Assembly (NCBI RefSeq): GCF_000039765.1
Contig: NC_004459.3
Span: forward strand, 1,830,001-1,862,000
From: Vibrio vulnificus CMCP6
Lineage (GTDB): Bacteria; Pseudomonadota; Gammaproteobacteria; Enterobacterales; Vibrionaceae
Reading direction: 5' to 3'
Length of the DNA stretch: 32,000 nucleotides
Of the stretch, positions 7,823-24,079 are shown piece by piece. Position 1 is the first letter of the stretch. Each line of letters begins with the position of its first letter. The translations under genes were made by a program, and so were the position numbers. Under the pieces are notes generated by a model. The model had not been told where the DNA came from. It searched no databases and saw nothing but the letters and a program-made list of their open reading frames with translations.

Positions 7823-9409
7823 ATGAGTTCATCTGCTTCGATTAAGCAAACTTCACCTAAGAAACCGCTCTTTACGCGCTTTCTAGACACGGTTGAATAT
7901 TTGGGGAACTTGTTACCCCACCCAATCACACTTTTCGCCATCTTCTGTTTGGCAATCTTAATTTCTTCTGGCATCGCGGGCTATTTTGAAGTCTCCGTTG
8001 TCGACCCTCGCCCTGAGGGTGCCAAAGGCCGCGCTGCTGACGGTATGATTCACGTTGTGAGCTTACTTAACGCAGACGGACTAGAGCTGATCGTGACCAA
8101 TCTCGTTAAAAACTTTGTCGGCTTTGCTCCTTTAGGCACAGTACTGGTGGCCATGTTGGGTGTTGCAATTGCAGAACACTCAGGTCTACTTTCTGCGGCC
8201 ATGCGTGGCATGGTGATGGGTGCGTCTAAGCGCATGGTGACCGTCACTGTGGTCTTTGCAGGTATCATTTCGAACACTGCATCTGAGCTTGGTTATGTGG
8301 TTCTGATTCCGCTTGCGGCGATGTTGTTCCACTCACTCGGTCGTCACCCTCTTGCGGGCTTGGCTGCTGCGTTTGCGGGTGTGTCTGGTGGTTACTCGGC
8401 AAACCTGTTGATCGGTACGGTGGATCCACTGCTTTCAGGTATTACTGAAACGGCAGCAAAAATGATCGACCCTACATACACGGTTGGTCCTGAAGTGAAC
8501 TGGTACTTCATGTTCGCGTCGACGTTTGTTATTTCATTCTTGGGTGCTTTTGTCACCGAAAAAGTCGTTGAGCCTAAACTGGGCAAATACAACGTTGAGG
8601 AAGCTGCAGAAGATCTCTCAAACGATAAGATGGGCAGTCTCACTGACGTTGAGAAAAAAGGTCTGAAACTGGCGGGTGTTGCGGTATTAGTGGTATCGGC
8701 ATTACTTGCTTGGACGATTGTTCCAGCTGACGGTGTGTTGCGCTCTGACGCAGGTACGGTAGCGGGTTCACCATTCCTTAAGAGTATTGTGGCGTTTATC
8801 TTTGTCTTCTTCGCTATCCCTGGCTTTGTTTACGGTAAAGTCGTTGGCACGATGAAGAATGACCGCGATGTGATTGATGCGATGTCAAAATCCATGTCTT
8901 CAATGGGTATGTACATTGTGTTGGTGTTCTTTGCTGCTCAGTTTGTTGCTTTCTTTAAGTGGACTAACTTCGGTCAAGTTTTCGCGGTGGCGGGTGCCGA
9001 TTTCCTACAGACCATTGGTCTTACTGGCCCGATGCTGTTCTTTGCCTTCATCCTTATGTGTGGCTTCATCAACTTGATGATTGGTTCTGCCTCTGCTCAG
9101 TGGGCGGTCACCGCACCGATCTTTGTTCCAATGTTGATGCTGGTGGGTTATGCACCTGAAACGATTCAAGCGGCATACCGTATCGGTGATTCCGTGACGA
9201 ACATCATCACGCCGATGATGAGCTACTTCGGTCTGATCCTCGCGGTTGCCACTCACTACATGAAGAACATGGGTATCGGTACACTGATCTCTGTGATGCT
9301 GCCGTACTCTATCGTCTTTATGGTGGGTTGGAGCTTGTTGTTCTACGTATGGGTATTTGTGTTTGGTTTGCCAGTGGGCCCAGGCGCGGCAACGTACTAC
9401 ACGCCATAA
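7823..9409 (+). CDS. AbgT family transporter (p-aminobenzoyl-glutamate transporter / MtrF-like)
   Basis: 528-aa polytopic membrane protein. The N-terminus ..FTRFLDTVEYLGNLLPHPITLFAIF.. is characteristic of AbgT. Strong RBS AAGGAGGG. Confidence 0.85.
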   Translation: MSSSASIKQTSPKKPLFTRFLDTVEYLGNLLPHPITLFAIFCLAILISSGIAGYFEVSVVDPRPEGAKGRAADGMIHVVSLLNADGLELIVTNLVKNFVGFAPLGTVLVAMLGVAIAEHSGLLSAAMRGMVMGASKRMVTVTVVFAGIISNTASELGYVVLIPLAAMLFHSLGRHPLAGLAAAFAGVSGGYSANLLIGTVDPLLSGITETAAKMIDPTYTVGPEVNWYFMFASTFVISFLGAFVTEKVVEPKLGKYNVEEAAEDLSNDKMGSLTDVEKKGLKLAGVAVLVVSALLAWTIVPADGVLRSDAGTVAGSPFLKSIVAFIFVFFAIPGFVYGKVVGTMKNDRDVIDAMSKSMSSMGMYIVLVFFAAQFVAFFKWTNFGQVFAVAGADFLQTIGLTGPMLFFAFILMCGFINLMIGSASAQWAVTAPIFVPMLMLVGYAPETIQAAYRIGDSVTNIITPMMSYFGLILAVATHYMKNMGIGTLISVMLPYSIVFMVGWSLLFYVWVFVFGLPVGPGAATYYTP

Positions 9410-9435: not shown

Positions 9436-9472
9436 ACAGAAGCCTGCGAATATCGCAGGCTTCTGTCTATTT
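9436..9472 (+). terminator. Rho-independent terminator after the AbgT gene
   Basis: 14-bp perfect stem acagaagcctgcga/tcgcaggcttctgt with a 3-nt loop, followed by a T-rich tail. Confidence 0.8.
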
Positions 9473-9572: not shown

Positions 9573-10682
9573 TCAAGGAATTTCTTCACCATTCCACTCT
9601 ATATCAACGGTCGAAGCCGCAGCAAATTTCACTTTGTTCTTCCTTGCGATTTGAAGTAGCTCAAAAACGCTCAACATTTGATACCTGATCGGTAAGTCGT
9701 GTTGCCGCATTACGTTGACGCCTGATAGCCAATCTTGCCAAGTGTTTGCTTTAAAAAAGGATAATCCGCCTCGTGCGATGAGCGAAACCGCTCCTAAATG
9801 GTGTAACTGCGGTTTTGTAGGAAAAGAGAACGCAAGTTCGGGAAACAAGTGAGTGCATTGAGGTGAGAGTAGGTGTAAACCACTAGTGGCTCTTGGGTTA
9901 CACTCGATTATATATAGCTCATCGTTTGTCTGGATAAAATCAAATGAAACTTGACCATGATAGTGATGCCGATGTCCAAAAGCCGTCATAAATGCCTCTA
10001 ATCGATCATCAACTATCGGTTGAAATGCACTGGCGGCAGAGCCATTTACACAGTTTTTGGGCAGATAAGCTTGGTGTGCTCTCATTTGACCATGTTCAAA
10101 AATCGCGTAGTTGCAAATAGGTGCTCCATGGATTTTTTCTTGCTGTACCCAAGGATGTTGAGTCGACATCGTGAGAGTGGAAATAGACTGACGGGTAATA
10201 TCTCGTATTACTTCACCGCCGAATCGAGAGTAAACCGGTTTGAGTACTGAGTCTGCGTTAATCTTGATGTCATGTTTATCAGTAACCAAACGAGTTTTGG
10301 GTAGGGAAATCTCAGGTAAATTTCGAAGTTGGTCAAAGACGGTAAACTTGTTGTGCAGTGAGCGCAGTAATGTCGAATTGGGTAGAAAAAAATGGACTCT
10401 CGGACACTGTTGGGCAATGTGTGCCAAATAGAACACTTCTTCACAAGTCGGTATCACCATATCAATGCGTTGCTGAGTGAGTAAATTGAGGATCTGTTGC
10501 TGGTAAGTAGGAAAGGAGAATCGAGGTGAAGCCGTTTTTACGTAATGCTCAATGCCTCGTAAAAACGCCCCCAGAGGTTGTGCTAATGAATCAGTGAGAA
10601 TGACATCGTGTCCATGCTTTATACACATCGCTGCCCACTCTAATGCGACGGGTGCCCGGGCGCCAGTGATTAAAATCCGCAT
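9573..10682 (-). CDS. ATP-grasp domain ligase (last gene of the five-gene operon)
   Basis: From the internal Met, MRILITGARAPVALEWAAM..HDVILTDS is a pre-ATP-grasp Rossmann-like N-terminus. It also has a ..VLKPVYSRFGGEV.. nucleotide-binding segment and a ..YIIECNPRATSG.. C-terminal ATP-grasp motif. The ATG at 10682 overlaps the upstream stop by 13 nt. The longer track start at 10721 is possible but less likely. Confidence 0.75.
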   Translation of the reverse strand: MRILITGARAPVALEWAAMCIKHGHDVILTDSLAQPLGAFLRGIEHYVKTASPRFSFPTYQQQILNLLTQQRIDMVIPTCEEVFYLAHIAQQCPRVHFFLPNSTLLRSLHNKFTVFDQLRNLPEISLPKTRLVTDKHDIKINADSVLKPVYSRFGGEVIRDITRQSISTLTMSTQHPWVQQEKIHGAPICNYAIFEHGQMRAHQAYLPKNCVNGSAASAFQPIVDDRLEAFMTAFGHRHHYHGQVSFDFIQTNDELYIIECNPRATSGLHLLSPQCTHLFPELAFSFPTKPQLHHLGAVSLIARGGLSFFKANTWQDWLSGVNVMRQHDLPIRYQMLSVFELLQIARKNKVKFAAASTVDIEWNGEEIP

Positions 10683-11938
10683 GTGTTCACCACTCGTCGT
10701 TGTTTGTTCATCGGAGTCCAAATCGGAGCAGGGCGATAATTGAATGTGACGGGATCAAGCCTTAGTTGATCAAACAGTTTTACTAGGGCTCGGTAAATGG
10801 CCGGGTGATGGTGAACATCCGCTTCTATTTGAATAGCCTGAGCTCCGGTTTGGGTGATTCGGTAATCGACGCGATCTTGAATTTCTAAAGTGATGGATCG
10901 GTAAATAAGATCAGGTAGCACCGACACGGCTACTTGGCTTGCGTTCAATTTTAGGCAGTCGCCACATCGCCCGGCAATAGCTCCGAGCGGTTCAAATACA
11001 CCGTTGTCCTGTTTGCTCTCAATGATATCGTCAAGCTGGTAGCGAATAATTGGCTGAGTTTTACGACGAAAATCAGTGATGATAGGGCTGTAATGAGTGC
11101 GTTCAGCGTTTAGCCAATGTTTTTCAATATAGACAATATCTTGATTCCATCGCATTTGTCCTTGTTGGTCAGTGCACGCAAGAAAACCTTCAGTACATTG
11201 ATAGACTTCATGCAATTCACTATCGAATTTTTGAGAAATATAGTGACGATCGATCTCGGTTAGCACCTCTGCTCCAGAAATGATCCGTTTCGGCTGGATC
11301 GCTGGCTGACCAAATTGACCACTGAATTGAGCACAGAGTTGAAGGGCTTGAGCGCTACCAACCAAAAGCGTGGGTTGAAACTCATCTAGTTCCTTTATCC
11401 ACTCTTGGTAAGGTTTGTTTAAATCAGCATAAAAGAACGTAATGGGACCTTTTGCTACGGATTTATATAGCGGGCTGTTGGCTCGCAGGGCAAGAGCTAT
11501 TCGATGTTTTCCCCACAAGCTGGGTAAGAGGCGACCCAAAATATTACCTGCCCAGAGTTGTGTCTCTTGTTTATCCGCGAGAAACAATCCGCGCATACCA
11601 GAGGTGCCTGAAGACAGTCCAACAGTTACATTGCCAACTTTTGACGCTGCGAAATTGCGTGATTTTTCTGCCTCTAATGCTTGTTGCATTAATGAGTTTG
11701 CATCCAAACCTTTTGTGTTTAACTCAGAGAGATTTTCCATCATGGTTTGCTTATTCATGATTGGGAAATCACGGAGTGACGCTCCTTGAAATGAATGATA
11801 ATAAGGAGAATGGCGACACACCCAATCCAGATGTTGTGTTACCTGTTTTTGTTGCCACTTTTCAACATGTGTTCTTGAGCTAAAAGGGCGGTAGCGCGTA
11901 CGCCAAAACTCAGAGAGAAGCGTTCTCACATTATCCAT
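10670..11938 (-). CDS. Adenylate-forming enzyme, coenzyme F390 synthetase / PaaK-like family
   Basis: The N-terminal region resembles PaaK/F390 synthetase (..HVEKWQQKQVTQHLDWVCRHSPYYHSF..). It has a phosphate-binding loop, GLSSGTSGMRGLF, related to SSGTTG. The start at 11938 (MDNVRTLL..) is chosen because the upstream 27 codons lie wholly inside the MBL gene. The start is uncertain because of weak SD spacing. Confidence 0.75.
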   Translation of the reverse strand: MDNVRTLLSEFWRTRYRPFSSRTHVEKWQQKQVTQHLDWVCRHSPYYHSFQGASLRDFPIMNKQTMMENLSELNTKGLDANSLMQQALEAEKSRNFAASKVGNVTVGLSSGTSGMRGLFLADKQETQLWAGNILGRLLPSLWGKHRIALALRANSPLYKSVAKGPITFFYADLNKPYQEWIKELDEFQPTLLVGSAQALQLCAQFSGQFGQPAIQPKRIISGAEVLTEIDRHYISQKFDSELHEVYQCTEGFLACTDQQGQMRWNQDIVYIEKHWLNAERTHYSPIITDFRRKTQPIIRYQLDDIIESKQDNGVFEPLGAIAGRCGDCLKLNASQVAVSVLPDLIYRSITLEIQDRVDYRITQTGAQAIQIEADVHHHPAIYRALVKLFDQLRLDPVTFNYRPAPIWTPMNKQRRVVNTCGF

Positions 11939-12789
11939 CCTTCTGTAATTAACTGTTGGATTGTCGCTTGGCAATGAGAAGGCACAAAGCGCACAAAATG
12001 ATGGGTATGCTGGTAGCAATTTCTCAACTCAGAGAGTGTTTGCTTGTAGGCTTGGGTATCATCGCAAAGCAGGTTCGCGAGCCAATGTTGATCGATGTTT
12101 TCACTCAAGTTCTCGATTAACCAACAGGCATCAGCTAACAAGAACAGCCAACCTTGCTCTCTCTTCACTAAAAGCCCTACTTGACCAGCAGCATGTCCGG
12201 GTAAACTCACCATGTAAATTAAGCCGTCGTTGAACATATCTTTACAAAGCAGATCAACGCCTTGGCAATGGGGAAGGATTTCACCAATGGGGATGGAAAA
12301 ATCACGGTGCATGACCAAGTTGGATTCGAGTTGTTGAGGGAGTAGCGCTTTTAGGTATCCTTTTCTAACGCCTCCCACTCGACCACTCTTAGTTAGGGCG
12401 TCCACTCCTTTTTGTTGGCAATGTAATTGGGAGTGCGCAAACTCAGACACGGCAGCGATGTGGTCGGCATGGAAGTGAGAAAGGACCAAGTGCTCAATCT
12501 CATGAGGTCCGATTTTTTCTTTTGCTAACTGGGCCACAATTCCGCGCTCTTTTTGATAGTGACATGGTGTTGTCCAAGCATAAAAGCGTTCAGGGAAGGG
12601 ACGAGTGGCACGGAAAAAATGCTCGTGATACCCAGTATCAAACAGAATGTTACCTTTAGTTGGGTGTTGAATTAACGCGACAGCCGCTGGAAACGATCTT
12701 GGCTTTAACCCAGAGCCGGGTTTGACGACAAAACTAGGGTGTACGCAGTGCCCAGCCTCAAAGATTTTTATTTTTAGACCAGTCTGCAT
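11926..12789 (-). CDS. MBL-fold metallo-hydrolase
   Basis: HxHxDH zinc motif (LVLSHFHADHIAA) followed by later His/Asp ligand candidates (..LPGHAAGQ.., ..LLADACW..). The N-terminus MQTGLKIKIFEAGHC is typical of lactonase/glyoxalase-II-like MBL proteins. Confidence 0.8.
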   Translation of the reverse strand: MQTGLKIKIFEAGHCVHPSFVVKPGSGLKPRSFPAAVALIQHPTKGNILFDTGYHEHFFRATRPFPERFYAWTTPCHYQKERGIVAQLAKEKIGPHEIEHLVLSHFHADHIAAVSEFAHSQLHCQQKGVDALTKSGRVGGVRKGYLKALLPQQLESNLVMHRDFSIPIGEILPHCQGVDLLCKDMFNDGLIYMVSLPGHAAGQVGLLVKREQGWLFLLADACWLIENLSENIDQHWLANLLCDDTQAYKQTLSELRNCYQHTHHFVRFVPSHCQATIQQLITEGWIM

Positions 12790-13744
12790 ACTGTTGGATT
12801 CCTTCTTGAACTGAAAAAAGCGGTTGGTAATTCAGCTTTTTCTGCGCCTTACTGATATCTAGAGTTTGGTGGTAGTTAAATAACCCTGCGCTGTATGAAG
12901 TGAGCTTTGGCTCCGGTTGGTACGGTAAGCGCATCCGTATTTGCTCACTGAGTTTTAATAACGGCAACACTAAGCGGTATGGGAGTGATATTAATTTAAC
13001 GTTTATGTTCAATGCTTCACACAAAGCTCTTAGCACGGTCTCAATAGGCATTGGCTCGTTGTTGGATATATTGAATATGTCACCATGTTGAAGTTGTTCC
13101 GCTTGAGTACAAGCAAGCATGGCAGCATGGGCTACATTATCGACATAAGTCAGATCAACAACCGGATTTCGCCCGGATGGCAGAAGTAGTGTGTCGTTTT
13201 TTATCGCTTTAAGTACCCTAGGGATAATCGCGCGATCGTTAGGACCGAAAATACCACGAGGTCTTAAAATGATCGTTTTGCTTTGTCCCTGTATGGCTTC
13301 AAGTTCAGACAAGTATTTTGTGTGCGCGTAATCATTACACCAACGCGAAGCAATATCGTCTGTTTCTCGAATATTCCACCTGTCTTTGTAGTCAAAATAG
13401 ACGCTGGTGGAGGAAATATGGATAAAACGTGATACCTGATGGGCATTCGCTGCGCTGATGAGGTTTTTTGTGGTGTCTACATTGGATTGATAAAACGCTT
13501 CCCACTTTCCCCAAGGGCTTGAGAGCGCAGCGCAATGGATGATCCCATCAATACCTTGGCATACATCATAAACCGCTGATTTATCCTCTAAATTGAGTAA
13601 ATGCGGTGTGACATTGAATTGGTCGGTGAGTTGTTTTGCGATGACAGTATTTCGCGCAGTAAAGTGCAGTTCATGTTGCTGGTGAAACATCCGTAGAATC
13701 GCACTACCCAGCATACCACTGCCACCTGTGACTAATATTTTCAT
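12758..13744 (-). CDS. NAD(P)-dependent extended short-chain dehydrogenase/reductase (epimerase/dehydratase / 3-beta-HSD family)
   Basis: N-terminal Rossmann motif MKILVTGGSGMLGSAI (TGxxGxxG) and catalytic YxxxK (YAHTK). At 328 aa, the length fits an extended SDR. Confidence 0.85.
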   Translation of the reverse strand: MKILVTGGSGMLGSAILRMFHQQHELHFTARNTVIAKQLTDQFNVTPHLLNLEDKSAVYDVCQGIDGIIHCAALSSPWGKWEAFYQSNVDTTKNLISAANAHQVSRFIHISSTSVYFDYKDRWNIRETDDIASRWCNDYAHTKYLSELEAIQGQSKTIILRPRGIFGPNDRAIIPRVLKAIKNDTLLLPSGRNPVVDLTYVDNVAHAAMLACTQAEQLQHGDIFNISNNEPMPIETVLRALCEALNINVKLISLPYRLVLPLLKLSEQIRMRLPYQPEPKLTSYSAGLFNYHQTLDISKAQKKLNYQPLFSVQEGIQQYADWSKNKNL

Positions 13745-14730
13745 AGTTTAAGGACTCCCATCCCCAACGAGAGCCCAGCAGCAGTGCCCGCCAATAAAAC
13801 ATGTTTCCCTTGTGTGCCTGGTTGGTTGCGTAGCCAGTGCAAGTTTATCGGCAATGACGCAGCGACTTGGTTACCCAAGGTGGAAAAGTGATTAACGATT
13901 TTCTCTTTCGGTAAACCAACGAGTGAGGGTAATTTCTTTAAACCGTGAGCACTCGCTTGGTGTGGAAGAAAGTAGTCAATATCGCGAAGGGTAACTGGAG
14001 AGGAGCAAAAGCCTTTTTCAAGAAACGCAGGCAAAGTTTTGCGCACATGTTTAAACAGTGCTTTGCCTTCCATTTCAAATTGGCAGTTTTTCAAATAGGC
14101 TTGATGCTCTGAAGTATGCGGGTTGATATGACTGCCTCCCCCCTTTATTTGACAGAATGAATACCCAGCGTGATGCGTTTCAAAGTGGCTCGTGAGCAGC
14201 CCTTCATTCTCTGTTTGCTCTAGTAAAAACGCTGCTGCACCGTCGGCGAATAAGGTTGCAACTTCAGGTTTGAGTGTGAAGCTGCGATTCAATGTGATGC
14301 CCGTAGCGAGCTCACTGGTGACAATAAGAATACGTTGGTAGCGTTTTGCTAAAAAAAGGTTCTGAGCAAGATTGAGAGCGGAGAGAAAAGACAAACACGT
14401 ACTGTTTAAATCAAAACTTTCTAGCGATGTCGGGGCGTCTAATGCCGCTAAGACTGCCGATGCATCATAAGGTAAAGACTGATGATGTGTGCCACTGGCA
14501 TAAATAAGGAGGTTAACAGAACTTAGCGAATGTGTGTTAGCGAGACATTGCGTTATCGCTTGCATTGCCATATATACAGCGGTTTCTTTCGTGTCGGCTA
14601 CATGACGATACTCAACGTCGAATTTGTTTCGACAAGTTCCTGAGGGTAATTTTAGGAAGCGATCCATCTCCCGATCTGACCACTGATTGACTGGCAGATA
14701 GCTTCCACTGGAAAGGATATTAAAGCCCAT
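13741..14730 (-). CDS. 3-oxoacyl-ACP synthase III (FabH-like KAS III) family condensing enzyme, first gene of the operon
   Basis: N-terminus ..ILSSGSYLP.. resembles FabH. The active-site Cys sits in NSTCLSF at residue 112 by my count, with His in LPHQAS and Asn in GNQVAAS. The C-terminal GxG region AGTAAGLSLG is also present. Confidence 0.85.
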   Translation of the reverse strand: MGFNILSSGSYLPVNQWSDREMDRFLKLPSGTCRNKFDVEYRHVADTKETAVYMAMQAITQCLANTHSLSSVNLLIYASGTHHQSLPYDASAVLAALDAPTSLESFDLNSTCLSFLSALNLAQNLFLAKRYQRILIVTSELATGITLNRSFTLKPEVATLFADGAAAFLLEQTENEGLLTSHFETHHAGYSFCQIKGGGSHINPHTSEHQAYLKNCQFEMEGKALFKHVRKTLPAFLEKGFCSSPVTLRDIDYFLPHQASAHGLKKLPSLVGLPKEKIVNHFSTLGNQVAASLPINLHWLRNQPGTQGKHVLLAGTAAGLSLGMGVLKL

Positions 14731-14926
14731 TATTTTCTACAAAGTCATTAAAAACGCCGTTCAAAATAATTCAAGTTGCATATTGGATCTATATCAAGAG
14801 GGTGAAAAAGGTAAGTGAGAGAATGCGAATGGGAGCGATAACACGCTTTGTATGCAAGGCTGGGTACAAAATATTCACTAGTGAGCCAGATGTTGATCAA
14901 CTGGCTCAATTTAAAAGGTGAGAGCT

Positions 14927-15376
14927 TTATTTCTTAAATTTGGCCAAAATGCGATCCAAATGATTGGCAAATTCGCGGCGTTCGGTTTGCGAGAGAGCCG
15001 CAGGGCCGCCAGTCTGGATTCCACTTGAGCGCATGGTTTCCATAAAGTCACGAATGTTAAGGCGCGCTTTAATGGTGTCTTTAGTATACAACTCACCACG
15101 TGAACTTAAGGCGAGTGCGCCTTTGGTGATCACTTCATCGGCGAGCGGAATATCAGAAGTAATCACCAAATCGTTTGGTTCCACACGTTTGACGATCTCG
15201 TTATCCGCAATGTCGAAGCCGGCAGGCACTTGCAAACTGTGGATGTTGGGCCTTCTTGGTACTGGTACAACGTGATTAGCGACAAAGGTGCATTCGACAC
15301 CGGTTCGCTCTGCTGCGCGGACAATGGTTTCTCGAATCACTTTTGGACAGGCGTCGGCATCAACCCATATCTTCAT
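14927..15376 (-). CDS. yaiI: YaiI/YqxD family protein (UPF0178, DUF188)
   Basis: [18 protein letters not shown].. is the hallmark N-terminus of UPF0178. 149 aa. Confidence 0.85.
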
Positions 15377-15666
15377 TGGTTTTTCTCTTTTAGTTGTGCT
15401 TCTAATGCATCGATACGAGCTGCCAGCTTCAGGACGGTCGCTTCGAGTTGGGCAATGCGTTCCGCATCTTGATTGGTTTGACTTGCCACTTCGATCTTCG
15501 GTACGCGCTGGGCGCTCTTCCAGCTTTTGATCGCGGCAATGATCGCAGGCATGGGGACCGATGTTTTTAATCGTGCCTTCACGAGCGCGACAGACGGCTC
15601 TTTTCCTTGCTGCTGAAGCTGTTCAAGCACCGCTTCCAGCTCTTTGGTGACATCTTGAGTTAACAT
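15373..15666 (-). CDS. Small protein with a KfrA_N-like DNA-binding N-terminus and a C-terminal coiled coil
   Basis: ..[32 protein letters not shown].. resembles the KfrA N-terminal domain pattern (..G..PTV..VR..LG.GS...I...L..W.). The C-terminus [27 protein letters not shown] has heptad character. AGGAAG RBS. The stop overlaps the yaiI start (ATGA). Confidence 0.5.
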
Positions 15667-15922: not shown

Positions 15923-16322
15923 TGTCGGAAGGATGCTGACACGGAACAGGAAACGCCAAGGATTTGGTTATCGTCAGGAAGACGATTTGGTTGCTCAGGA
16001 TGAGGAATCAAGCAAGGAGCGAAGGACATTGTAGGAAGCAATCACTAATAGGATGTTGGTGACGAAGGAACGACAATGGACACCTCGAGGATGGAGGTCA
16101 GGACAGTATCAGGACGATACCAGGGACACCGCTCAAGGAACAAGTGATGTGCGCTAACGGGGATAGTTAGCTGTCAGGAAGATTAGGACACCGCTAGGAC
16201 GGCGAAGTAAGGAATAGCTGAAGGATTCAGCCACTATTATGGATGATGCAGGGAGCATTATTAGTAGCCGGACTGCTGCGAGTAAGACTATAGCCCCGAT
16301 ACGAAAGTGTCGGGGCTTTTCT
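15923..16322 (+). ncRNA. CsrB-family (CsrB/CsrC/CsrD-like) CsrA-sequestering small RNA
   Basis: No ORF of 60 aa or more lies in 15667-16500. I count about 29 GGA trinucleotides on the + strand between 15927 and 16272, mostly as A(N)GGA, and almost no TCC. Several sit in loops of 5-bp hairpins: tcgtcAGGAAgacga (15971-15985), acctcGAGGATGgaggt (16082-16098), gtatcAGGACgatac (16106-16120) and gctgaAGGATtcagc (16217-16231). The RNA ends with an intrinsic terminator, agccccga..tcggggct + TTTTCTT (16292-16322). The 5' end is approximate, taken from a candidate promoter TTGCTC-N16-TAAATT at 15889-15916. Confidence 0.8.
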
Positions 16323-16500
16323 TATCGTCATCTCTTCACACTCTCTACCGTCAGATCGATATAAGTATTTTATAAACAACGTTAAAAAACAATCTGGATC
16401 AATAACTCTTTGTTCAAGTTGGTTTAATTTTTCGGCTTCTCAATTGGGCGTAACGGATTTGCAACGCGCTAAATCGGTACCGCCATATCAAGGATAGAAT

Positions 16501-23866: not shown

Positions 23867-24079
23867 TTGCCTTCAATGGGCAAAATATGGTATAAAGCGC
23901 GCCGGAAATGAGGACTGTTCTCTTCGTTAAGAGAAACTTAATGGCGAAGCAGGCTTCTTCCAAAAACACTTTTTCTTTAAATCACACACATTCCGACACA
24001 TGTTCCGGGGTGCCCAGCGATTAGGCTAGGGTCGGATACATGGGGGATGTGGAGGCCTAACCCCATAGAGGATTTTAAA
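23867..24079 (+). promoter_or_regulatory. rpsB promoter (TTGCCT-N18-TGgTATAAA, extended -10) and ~180-nt structured 5' leader (probable S2 autoregulatory leader)
   Basis: An extended -10 lies at 23888-23896. A long GC-punctuated leader (..ccggggtgcccagcgattaggctagggtcggatacatgggggatgtggaggcctaacccc..) precedes the AGAGGA RBS. In E. coli, rpsB-tsf is known to be autoregulated through a conserved long 5' UTR. Confidence 0.5.

Follow-up and report, generated by a model that had tools for sequence, protein, structure and literature searches.

A widespread condensing-enzyme cassette with a putative role in lipid synthesis, and its apparently trimmed five-gene version in Vibrio vulnificus CMCP6

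The OleABCD system, and with it the lipstatin (LstABCD) and nocardiolactone systems, combines a thiolase-fold condensing enzyme, a 3-beta-HSD-type reductase, an adenylating enzyme and a hydrolase, which are encoded in a compact cluster and operate with no carrier protein. Enzymes of these general types are also encoded by a five-gene operon at positions 9573-14730 of a 32,000-nucleotide stretch of DNA from Vibrio vulnificus CMCP6 (contig NC_004459.3, positions 1,830,001 to 1,862,000; the whole stretch is called the window below), which specifies a KAS III-fold condensing enzyme (KS), an extended short-chain dehydrogenase/reductase (SDR), a metallo-beta-lactamase (MBL)-fold hydrolase, a PaaK-type ligase related to coenzyme F390 synthetase, and an ATP-grasp ligase. 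The cassette to which these genes belong shares with OleABCD the tight linkage of reductase, hydrolase and ligase, but its KS is of the FabH/PRK07204 type and not of the OleA type, its ligase is of the PaaK/F390 type whereas OleC is of the Pfam AMP-binding type, and its hydrolase has the MBL fold in place of the alpha/beta-hydrolase fold of OleB, with no alpha/beta-hydrolase encoded in the window. Judged from the sequences, the cassette appears to follow the lipid-condensation logic of thiolase, SDR, adenylating enzyme and hydrolase with every position filled from a family or subfamily other than that of its Ole counterpart. Since head-group and lipid-tailoring genes are found downstream in the cassette, a polar group would be retained, and not a hydrocarbon formed as in the Ole route.

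Three further systems invite comparison. PqsA, PqsD and PqsE likewise unite an ANL ligase with KAS III-fold and MBL-fold enzymes that act on CoA thioesters, no carrier protein being involved, but the Pqs route lacks an SDR and an ATP-grasp enzyme, the ligase of the cassette is PaaK-type and not PqsA-type, and the sequence likeness is distant. CorB and the protein of Protein Data Bank (PDB) entry 4v2p are the closest solved relatives of the KS, and their Cys/His/Asn triads align with its own; they belong to trans-AT polyketide synthase (PKS)/non-ribosomal peptide synthetase clusters and act on carrier-bound chains, whereas the KS of the cassette stands alone with neither PKS nor carrier protein. 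The FadD32-Pks13-CmrA system of mycolic acid synthesis resembles the cassette in logic only, in that adenylation, Claisen condensation of two chains, reduction of the 3-keto group and release yield a 2-alkyl-3-hydroxy acid on a polar head; its proteins are unrelated and multidomain, depend on an acyl carrier protein (ACP), and are confined to the Mycobacteriales.

Our reading of the V. vulnificus operon, to which we give about an even chance of being correct, is that a widespread cassette of two modules, which makes a lipid derived from fatty acids, occurs here in a form trimmed in this lineage, and that an amine head group is added to the lipid. The genes are intact and all lie on the minus strand, packed head to tail, and the coordinates that the original prediction had derived from the letters of the sequence are confirmed, as are its family assignments for all five proteins, which agree with Pfam and NCBIfam. 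In the direction of transcription the genes are:

13741-14730, minus strand: KS (KAS III-fold condensing enzyme), 329 aa
12758-13744, minus strand: SDR (extended, 3-beta-HSD type), 328 aa
11926-12789, minus strand: MBL-fold dizinc hydrolase, 287 aa
10670-11938, minus strand: F390-related/PaaK-type ligase, 422 aa from an ATG start (a longer open reading frame with a TTG start reaches 12019)
9573-10682, minus strand: ATP-grasp ligase, 369 aa from an ATG start (a TTG alternative reaches 10721)

There is no intergenic space, the overlaps between neighbouring genes from KS to ATP-grasp being 4, 32, 13 and 13 nt, with the SDR gene overlapping the KS stop codon by 4 nt. The ATG starts are preferred because they match the N-termini in the family alignments. 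Domain annotation of the window places no ACP, transporter or regulator in the five-gene block.

Identical order and overlaps of the five genes recur in V. harveyi, V. floridensis, V. diabolicus, V. penaeicida, V. ruber, V. nigripulchritudo, Vibrio sp. MEBiC08052 and Psychromonas; in the more distant of these species the cluster is flanked by genes other than those of the window. Orthologues of all five (28-55% identity) are clustered in Hahella, a Thermoactinomycete, a Bacillus, a Limnothrix cyanobacterium and Sulfurimonas, the order in the Thermoactinomycete and the Bacillus being KS, ATP-grasp, SDR, MBL, ligase. A scan of metagenomes added 80 loci, and neighbour counts rest on 47 loci with enough flanking sequence. 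Near the ligase gene, SDR and MBL genes were each present in 46 of the 47, a KS gene in 40 and an ATP-grasp gene in 30; a GNAT-like gene was present in 15, with three more divergent copies assigned to the same family (hhalign probability 100), and a Rieske/VanA-type oxygenase gene in 5. The SDR, MBL and ligase genes are contiguous and always in that order, the KS gene stands either before the SDR or after the ligase gene, and the ATP-grasp gene varies in position, following either the KS or the ligase gene. The conserved unit is a four-gene core of KS, SDR, MBL and ligase, and not the five genes. This core extends to Vibrio, Hahella, Sulfurimonas, Bacillales, cyanobacteria, Yersinia, Pseudomonas syringae and Escherichia coli, and its gene order is kept across Gammaproteobacteria, Campylobacterota, Bacillota and Cyanobacteria. 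The five-gene co-conservation to which the original prediction had looked is thus borne out for the four core genes, which are syntenic across phyla, but not for the ATP-grasp gene, which belongs to a separable module.

All five genes have dN/dS values of 0.05-0.21 in four pairwise comparisons (a range that excludes the F390-related gene of locus L002), and are therefore under purifying selection. Between the window and the V. harveyi locus (L001), dS is 0.15-0.21 across the cluster, in contrast to 1.48 for the flanking abgT (7823-9409) and saturation for yaiI (14927-15376) on the other side. This difference indicates that V. vulnificus and V. harveyi lineages recently exchanged the whole five-gene block horizontally, the site between abgT and yaiI being shared by both.

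The second module consists of the ATP-grasp ligase, a FemAB-like GNAT protein and a Rieske oxygenase, and it is optional and separable from the core. That the cassette is built of two modules follows from an Eikenella sp. locus (L098 7001-9197), where the ATP-grasp gene is paired with the GNAT-like gene close to a Rieske fragment, with no core alongside. In other Vibrio species and in Psychromonas the GNAT-like gene, of approximately 365 aa, lies 3' of the ATP-grasp gene; it is kept in V. diabolicus, V. penaeicida, V. nigripulchritudo and Psychromonas, at the following positions:

L002 10342-11439: GNAT-like gene
L004 10398-11471: GNAT-like gene
L007 10362-11453: GNAT-like gene
L008 10353-11444: GNAT-like gene

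The gene is absent from the window, V. harveyi, V. floridensis, V. ruber and Vibrio sp. MEBiC08052, and a search of the window and of loci L001, L003, L005 and L006 for a remnant of it found none. The open reading frame that follows the ATP-grasp gene in V. harveyi was considered as a possible partner and rejected, as it encodes an unrelated MipA. The window has lost both the GNAT-like and the Rieske partner, so that the ligase is all that is left of the second module. The GNAT-like family has no match in the PDB or NCBIfam, and the Vibrio copy has none in Pfam either; PF13480 matches the Hahella and Limnothrix copies weakly. Besides the GNAT-like gene, relatives carry an ABC exporter and, in one case (L010), an alpha/beta-hydrolase, so that the earlier remark that acyltransferase and transporter are missing holds for the lineage of the window only.

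The genes that accompany the core in other taxa are of a different kind. A core with no ATP-grasp module is common in Enterobacterales and Pseudomonas, and where that module is absent, lipid-modifying genes lie 3' of the core and in its orientation. In the Yersinia pseudotuberculosis complex, this region encodes a second OleD-like SDR and two glycosyltransferases, a GT21 protein (nearest to HpnI) and a macrolide-GT-like one, as well as a 194-aa unknown protein. In P. syringae it encodes a PAP2_3 protein and two enzymes of fatty-acid modification, a hydroxylase (nearest to OlsE) and a desaturase (nearest to DesA/DesB); metagenomic loci show the same accessory combinations as Yersinia and P. syringae. 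The PAP2, hydroxylase, desaturase and GT21 proteins each have 3-6 transmembrane-like hydrophobic segments, and the core enzymes appear soluble. In Sulfurimonas the cluster lies directly downstream of a gene for a 1144-aa protein with MFS, acyltransferase and AMP-binding domains. In E. coli, the core is part of an island of seven genes, inserted between narI and a gene for tRNA-Tyr and present in 674 of 5426 complete genomes (approximately 12%), including those of O25:H4 isolates, 83972, ATCC 25922 and 'clone D i2', with two copies on plasmids. Its genes encode KS, SDR, MBL, ligase, PAP2, a 'sterol desaturase family' protein and a fatty-acid desaturase, all under generic PGAP names, and its representative is:

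L097 5799-12680: E. coli seven-gene island, chromosome of E. coli Rb-23

Ceramides and other lipids with two tails are tailored by several of the accessory families named (GT21, PAP2_3, membrane hydroxylases and desaturases), and for this reason the product of the core is read as a lipid with a free polar group. The original prediction had envisaged an acyl metabolite, possibly a lactone or amide conjugate; the Enterobacterales and Pseudomonas context points instead to a membrane lipid.

Turning to the individual enzymes, all five of which keep their active-site motifs, the KS has both the ACP_syn_III and the ACP_syn_III_C domain of Pfam and an intact Cys112/His257/Asn287 triad, which aligns with the triad motifs of 4v2p and CorB. 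Against the NCBIfam model PRK07204 it scores 236 bits, under the cutoff of 402, with the KS proteins of the Bacillus and cyanobacterial clusters scoring 553 and 448, which makes the window KS a divergent relative of that family; PRK07204, named 'beta-ketoacyl-ACP synthase III' by NCBI, is effectively a model for the KS of the cassette. The FabH cutoffs are missed (136.5 bits vs 292 for TIGR00747 and 159.1 vs 249 for PRK09352). In the PDB the closest matches are 4v2p (7e-38) and CorB (1e-32), followed by true FabH enzymes at approximately 1e-23 and PqsD at 1e-13. The window KS is 31-32% identical to 4v2p and CorB, within a range of 30-48% across members of its family, and all 37 cluster KS proteins compared score higher against 4v2p/CorB than against E. 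coli FabH. Entry 4v2p bears only the PDB label 'KETOSYNTHASE', and we take it to be MxnB of myxopyronin biosynthesis. CorB and MxnB, which are alpha-pyrone-forming ketosynthases from myxobacteria, condense a pair of acyl chains in head-to-head fashion, and lactonisation releases the product.

The SDR (Pfam Epimerase and 3Beta_HSD), with a GxxGxxG motif at residues 7-13 and the catalytic-type pair Y139xxxK143, finds its top NCBIfam models in the OleD 2-alkyl-3-oxoalkanoate reductases NF042422 and NF042423 (173.5 and 171.4 bits). It remains below the OleD membership cutoff of 580 bits, as does the Bacillus orthologue at 248, and its top PDB match is the sterol-4-alpha-carboxylate 3-dehydrogenase NSDHL (3.7e-21). 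It is probably a 3-keto reductase.

The hydrolase belongs to Pfam Lactamase_B and has an HFHADH motif at residues 105-110; the dizinc residues H105, H107, D109, H110, H199, D220 and H272 are invariant in 26 family members. Its family profile matches N-acyl-homoserine lactone (AHL) lactonases, GcL and 4-pyridoxolactonase over the full length at 1e-23 to 1e-20, and the PqsE thioesterase at 5.5e-4, approximately 19 orders of magnitude more weakly, which places the protein, by profile, in the lactonase clade. With AiiA, AttM and GcL it shares this full-length match and the complete HxHxDH...H...D...H site, but unlike these metallo-lactonases it is encoded within a biosynthetic-looking operon and falls far below all AHL-lactonase cutoffs (AttM, AiiA, AhlS and AidB; 360-475 bits), scoring at most 65.9 (for AttM, 66 vs 390). 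An invariant tryptophan, W223, three residues past the metal-binding Asp, stands where AiiA has its catalytic Tyr.

The ligase falls in TIGR02304, 'F390 synthetase-related protein' (374.1 bits over residues 6-394, cutoff 251.9), and scores 18.3 bits against coenzyme F390 synthetase proper (TIGR03335, cutoff 458.7), so that its F390 name is historical and implies no F420 chemistry. The window protein, which is 100% identical to AAO10249.2 of V. vulnificus CMCP6, has no Pfam match and hence none to AMP-binding (PF00501). Its family profile matches PaaK-type ligases at 3e-18 with the N-terminal approximately 170 residues unaligned at the sequence level, and as a single sequence it gave one weak match in the PDB. 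The AlphaFold2 (AF2) model (pLDDT 90.5) has a complete PaaK architecture, and Foldseek aligned it over the full length with PaaK1/2, BT_0428, AjiA1, NatL2 and ClxA at TM-scores of 0.55-0.61 and 15-17% identity. An SSGTSG loop of the phosphate-binding type (residues 109-114) and the C-terminal K412 are invariant in the family. The PaaK family includes CoA ligases as well as enzymes that form esters or amides directly, so that the acceptor here may be CoA, an amine or an internal hydroxyl; the ligase of the cassette shares the whole-protein fold with its solved members but differs from them in belonging to a separate curated family, TIGR02304, which carries no functional name. The ligase family is of modest size, a set of 1.84 billion proteins yielding 372 representatives at 50% identity (E<=1e-30), and 31 plasmid records of PLSDB contain a homologue. 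A table of virulence-screen transposon mutants of P. syringae pv. actinidiae (PMC9823363) includes one that is hit in IYO_RS29540, annotated 'Coenzyme F390 synthetase' and possibly an orthologue of the cassette ligase. A 'coenzyme F390 synthetase' gene, likewise a possible orthologue, is tabulated for P. aeruginosa ATCC 27853.

The ATP-grasp ligase (Pfam ATP-grasp_3) matches PRK06849, a 'hypothetical protein' family, over its full length with 456.8 bits at a cutoff of 406. A PDB search with the single sequence returned no match; its AF2 model (pLDDT 92.9) was aligned by Foldseek with PurK, L-amino-acid ligase, PylC, PurT and RizA at TM-scores of 0.5-0.6 and 12-16% identity. The enzyme could accordingly be a carboxylate-amine ligase that forms a subfamily of its own. 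Family profiles and the AF2/Foldseek comparisons gave generic folds and no substrate clue for either ligase, and no curated family names a function for the PaaK-type ligase, the ATP-grasp ligase or the GNAT-like protein.

In the pathway that we propose for the two-module cassette, the core would work with no dedicated carrier protein. The KS would first carry out the Claisen condensation of two acyl thioesters, after which the OleD-like SDR would reduce the 3-keto group to give a (2-alkyl-)3-hydroxy acyl product. The lactonase-type MBL enzyme would then make or break an ester, lactone or thioester bond, thereby freeing or re-routing the intermediate, and the PaaK-type ligase would activate the carboxylate with ATP. 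In the second module, the ATP-grasp ligase would couple the free carboxylate with an amine or an amino acid as head group. The core product is best read as a branched 3-hydroxy lipid acid that later receives an amine. The analysis shows which enzyme classes are involved, that they are conserved and in what context they occur; the product and its head group, the substrates, the sequence of steps and the head-to-head nature of the condensation are inferred. A more specific version of this proposal, possible but on the whole doubtful, holds that the core makes an unrecognised class of two-tailed membrane lipid, a 2-alkyl-3-hydroxy 'pseudo-ceramide / mini-mycolate' acid, by means of a CorB-like KS with no pyridoxal-phosphate-dependent Spt and no PKS, with new release-and-reactivation chemistry of the MBL and PaaK-type enzymes and with interchangeable head-group modules. 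These modules would be ATP-grasp/GNAT/Rieske in Vibrio, Bacillales and cyanobacteria, glycosyltransferases in Yersinia, and PAP2/hydroxylase/desaturase in P. syringae and E. coli.

Several observations weigh against the two-module lipid pathway. The lipid-type accessory genes on which the assignment to lipids is based come from other taxa and not from Vibrio, none of the five proteins passes any Ole-family cutoff, and the lactonase likeness of the MBL protein is no proof of a lactone substrate. The KS of the Bacillus cluster passes the generic FabH subfamily model PRK09352 (269 vs 249 bits), and since the triad of decarboxylating FabH enzymes is also kept, the KS could possibly perform ordinary primer-plus-malonyl chemistry. 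In the window strain the usual GNAT partner of the ATP-grasp ligase is missing and the gene has the highest dN/dS of the five (0.13-0.21), for which reasons it may play a smaller or another role here. A truncated ATP-grasp protein of 258 aa is present in certain V. harveyi records (P0246; 95% identity over 64% of the query), which hints that the partner-less enzyme is decaying in some strains. Finally, the statement of the original prediction that the gene set maps onto no characterised pathway agrees with the full-text literature searched, in which the set is not described; most subscription journals lie outside that literature, so a characterisation may have been missed.

The main alternative is a route in the manner of PqsA/PqsD/PqsE, which the gene set would also allow in place of the order of reactions in the original prediction. 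In this route the ligase acts first and converts an unusual acid to its CoA thioester, the KS extends it decarboxylatively with one malonyl unit in the manner of FabH and PqsD, the SDR reduces the 3-keto group, the MBL enzyme serves as thioesterase, and the ATP-grasp ligase amidates the resulting 3-hydroxy acid. We regard this order as possible but on the whole doubtful, with the following arguments in its favour: there is an established case in which an MBL thioesterase works together with an ANL ligase and a KAS III enzyme (in the PDB, PqsE is a 2-aminobenzoylacetyl-CoA thioesterase and PqsD a biosynthetic enzyme of the Pseudomonas quinolone signal), most of the solved PaaK-family enzymes are CoA ligases, and the core has no other thioesterase. 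The retained Cys-His-Asn triad and the Bacillus orthologue above the FabH subfamily cutoff would also fit, and the VanA-like Rieske oxygenases of some clusters would suit an aromatic primer. The affinities of the enzymes nevertheless lie elsewhere, as the MBL family matches lactonases at 1e-23 against 5.5e-4 for PqsE, the KS matches 4v2p at 7e-38 against 1e-13 for PqsD, and the SDR is of the extended, OleD-like type and not a FabG-type ketoacyl reductase; the lipid-tailoring accessory genes, moreover, suit a two-tailed lipid better than a small 3-hydroxy acid.

A strict analogue of the Ole and lipstatin pathways, in which the KS would stand for OleA, the SDR for OleD, the ligase for the beta-lactone synthetase OleC and the MBL enzyme for OleB, with a beta-lactone, an olefin or a ring-opened conjugate as the end product, is in our estimate unlikely. 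The analogy had already been drawn in the original prediction, and parts of it stand: OleD is the best family of the SDR, the KS is nearest to head-to-head condensing enzymes (closer to 4v2p/CorB than to FabH), the MBL enzyme falls in the lactonase clade, and the linked triad of SDR, MBL and F390-related genes with a mobile KS parallels OleBCD with a separate OleA. Lipstatin offers a further parallel, since an amino acid and an N-acyl group are added there to a beta-lactone lipid, much as an ATP-grasp/GNAT pair might do. What does not stand is membership, for all Ole cutoffs are missed and the ligase is PaaK-type with no Pfam AMP-binding match. Furthermore, an olefin would leave nothing for ATP-grasp, GT21 or PAP2 proteins to modify, and we know of no MBL-fold beta-lactone decarboxylase.

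A catabolic or signal-quenching operon, in which the MBL enzyme opens an AHL or pyrone lactone, the ligase activates the hydroxy acid, the SDR oxidises it and the KS-fold enzyme cleaves it, is very unlikely. All four core reactions can be written in reverse and the MBL enzyme is nearest to quorum-quenching lactonases, but the core is co-located with glycosyltransferases, desaturases, hydroxylases and PAP2 proteins, the Vibrio locus has no transporter or regulator of the kind typical of catabolic operons, and KAS III-fold Cys-His-Asn enzymes condense and are not thiolytic. Least probable is that the genes serve anti-phage defence or are unrelated and adjacent by chance, as PADLOC gives no significant match to the five proteins (only the MBL enzyme to LmuA, at E 4.4e-4), in spite of weak to unmarked matches of MBL orthologues in related loci to Pfam Anti-Pycsar_Apyc1 beside Lactamase_B, and chance is ruled out by the cross-phylum synteny and the purifying selection.

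Should the reading as a two-module lipid cassette be correct, a compact and horizontally mobile cassette would encode an undescribed lipid pathway in important organisms, among them V. vulnificus, the Yersinia pseudotuberculosis complex, Serratia marcescens, Pectobacterium, P. syringae and approximately 12% of complete E. coli genomes. It would represent a third route to two-tailed 3-hydroxy lipids beside Spt-based ceramide and Pks13-based mycolate synthesis, provide functions for the 'function unknown' families TIGR02304, PRK06849 and PRK07204 and for the GNAT-like family, and possibly reveal new chemistry of lactonase-type MBL and PaaK-type enzymes. Because envelope lipids influence interactions with antibiotics, phages and hosts, the product could also matter for the phenotype. 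Were the reading wrong, what remained would be an orphan biosynthetic cluster of an ordinary kind; the breadth of the distribution raises the significance, and the ordinariness of orphan clusters tempers it.

As to the boundaries of the operon, the surroundings consist of chromosomal housekeeping genes, in the order proS, trmO, abgT, the cluster, yaiI, CsrB, glnD, map, rpsB, tsf, pyrH, uppS, cdsA, dxr and rseP. The elements between the operon and its immediate neighbours are:

14731-14926, minus strand: presumed promoter region, 196-bp intergenic stretch upstream of the KS gene
14882-14908, minus strand: conserved hairpin directly 3' of the yaiI stop codon, inside the 196-bp upstream region
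9436-9466, no strand assigned: GC-rich hairpin with a 14-bp stem, between the convergent ATP-grasp and abgT genes

Rfam gave no match to a leader RNA or riboswitch upstream of the operon, and a scan for sigma-70 promoters and terminators reported no promoter-like site in 14731-14926, the site counts not exceeding those in shuffled sequence. In an alignment of the window with four other Vibrio loci, the stem of the hairpin at 14882-14908 (TGAGCCAG/CTGGCTCA) is kept and its loop is variable; it has no T-tract and may be a terminator-like or a REP-like element. The hairpin at 9436-9466 was the sole stand-out of the promoter and terminator scan around the operon and is a probable bidirectional terminator closing it.

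Three neighbouring genes, abgT, yaiI and a 97-aa open reading frame, were considered as members of the cluster and rejected, since they do not adjoin it in distant Vibrio species; abgT and yaiI are placed outside also because they diverge at the species level and the cluster genes do not. The 97-aa open reading frame (15373-15666, minus strand) overlaps the start of yaiI and matches KfrA_N and PspB-like coiled coils only weakly; its identity to the V. harveyi and V. diabolicus copies is 73-77%, in contrast to approximately 95% for the neighbouring yaiI. Two RNA genes lie farther along on the plus strand: a CsrB/RsmB-family small RNA at 16009-16327, with a full-length Rfam match of 100.5 bits and a strong terminator hairpin (16292-16317) at its end, and a t44 RNA (RF00127, 83.4 bits) at 23965-24061, directly upstream of rpsB.

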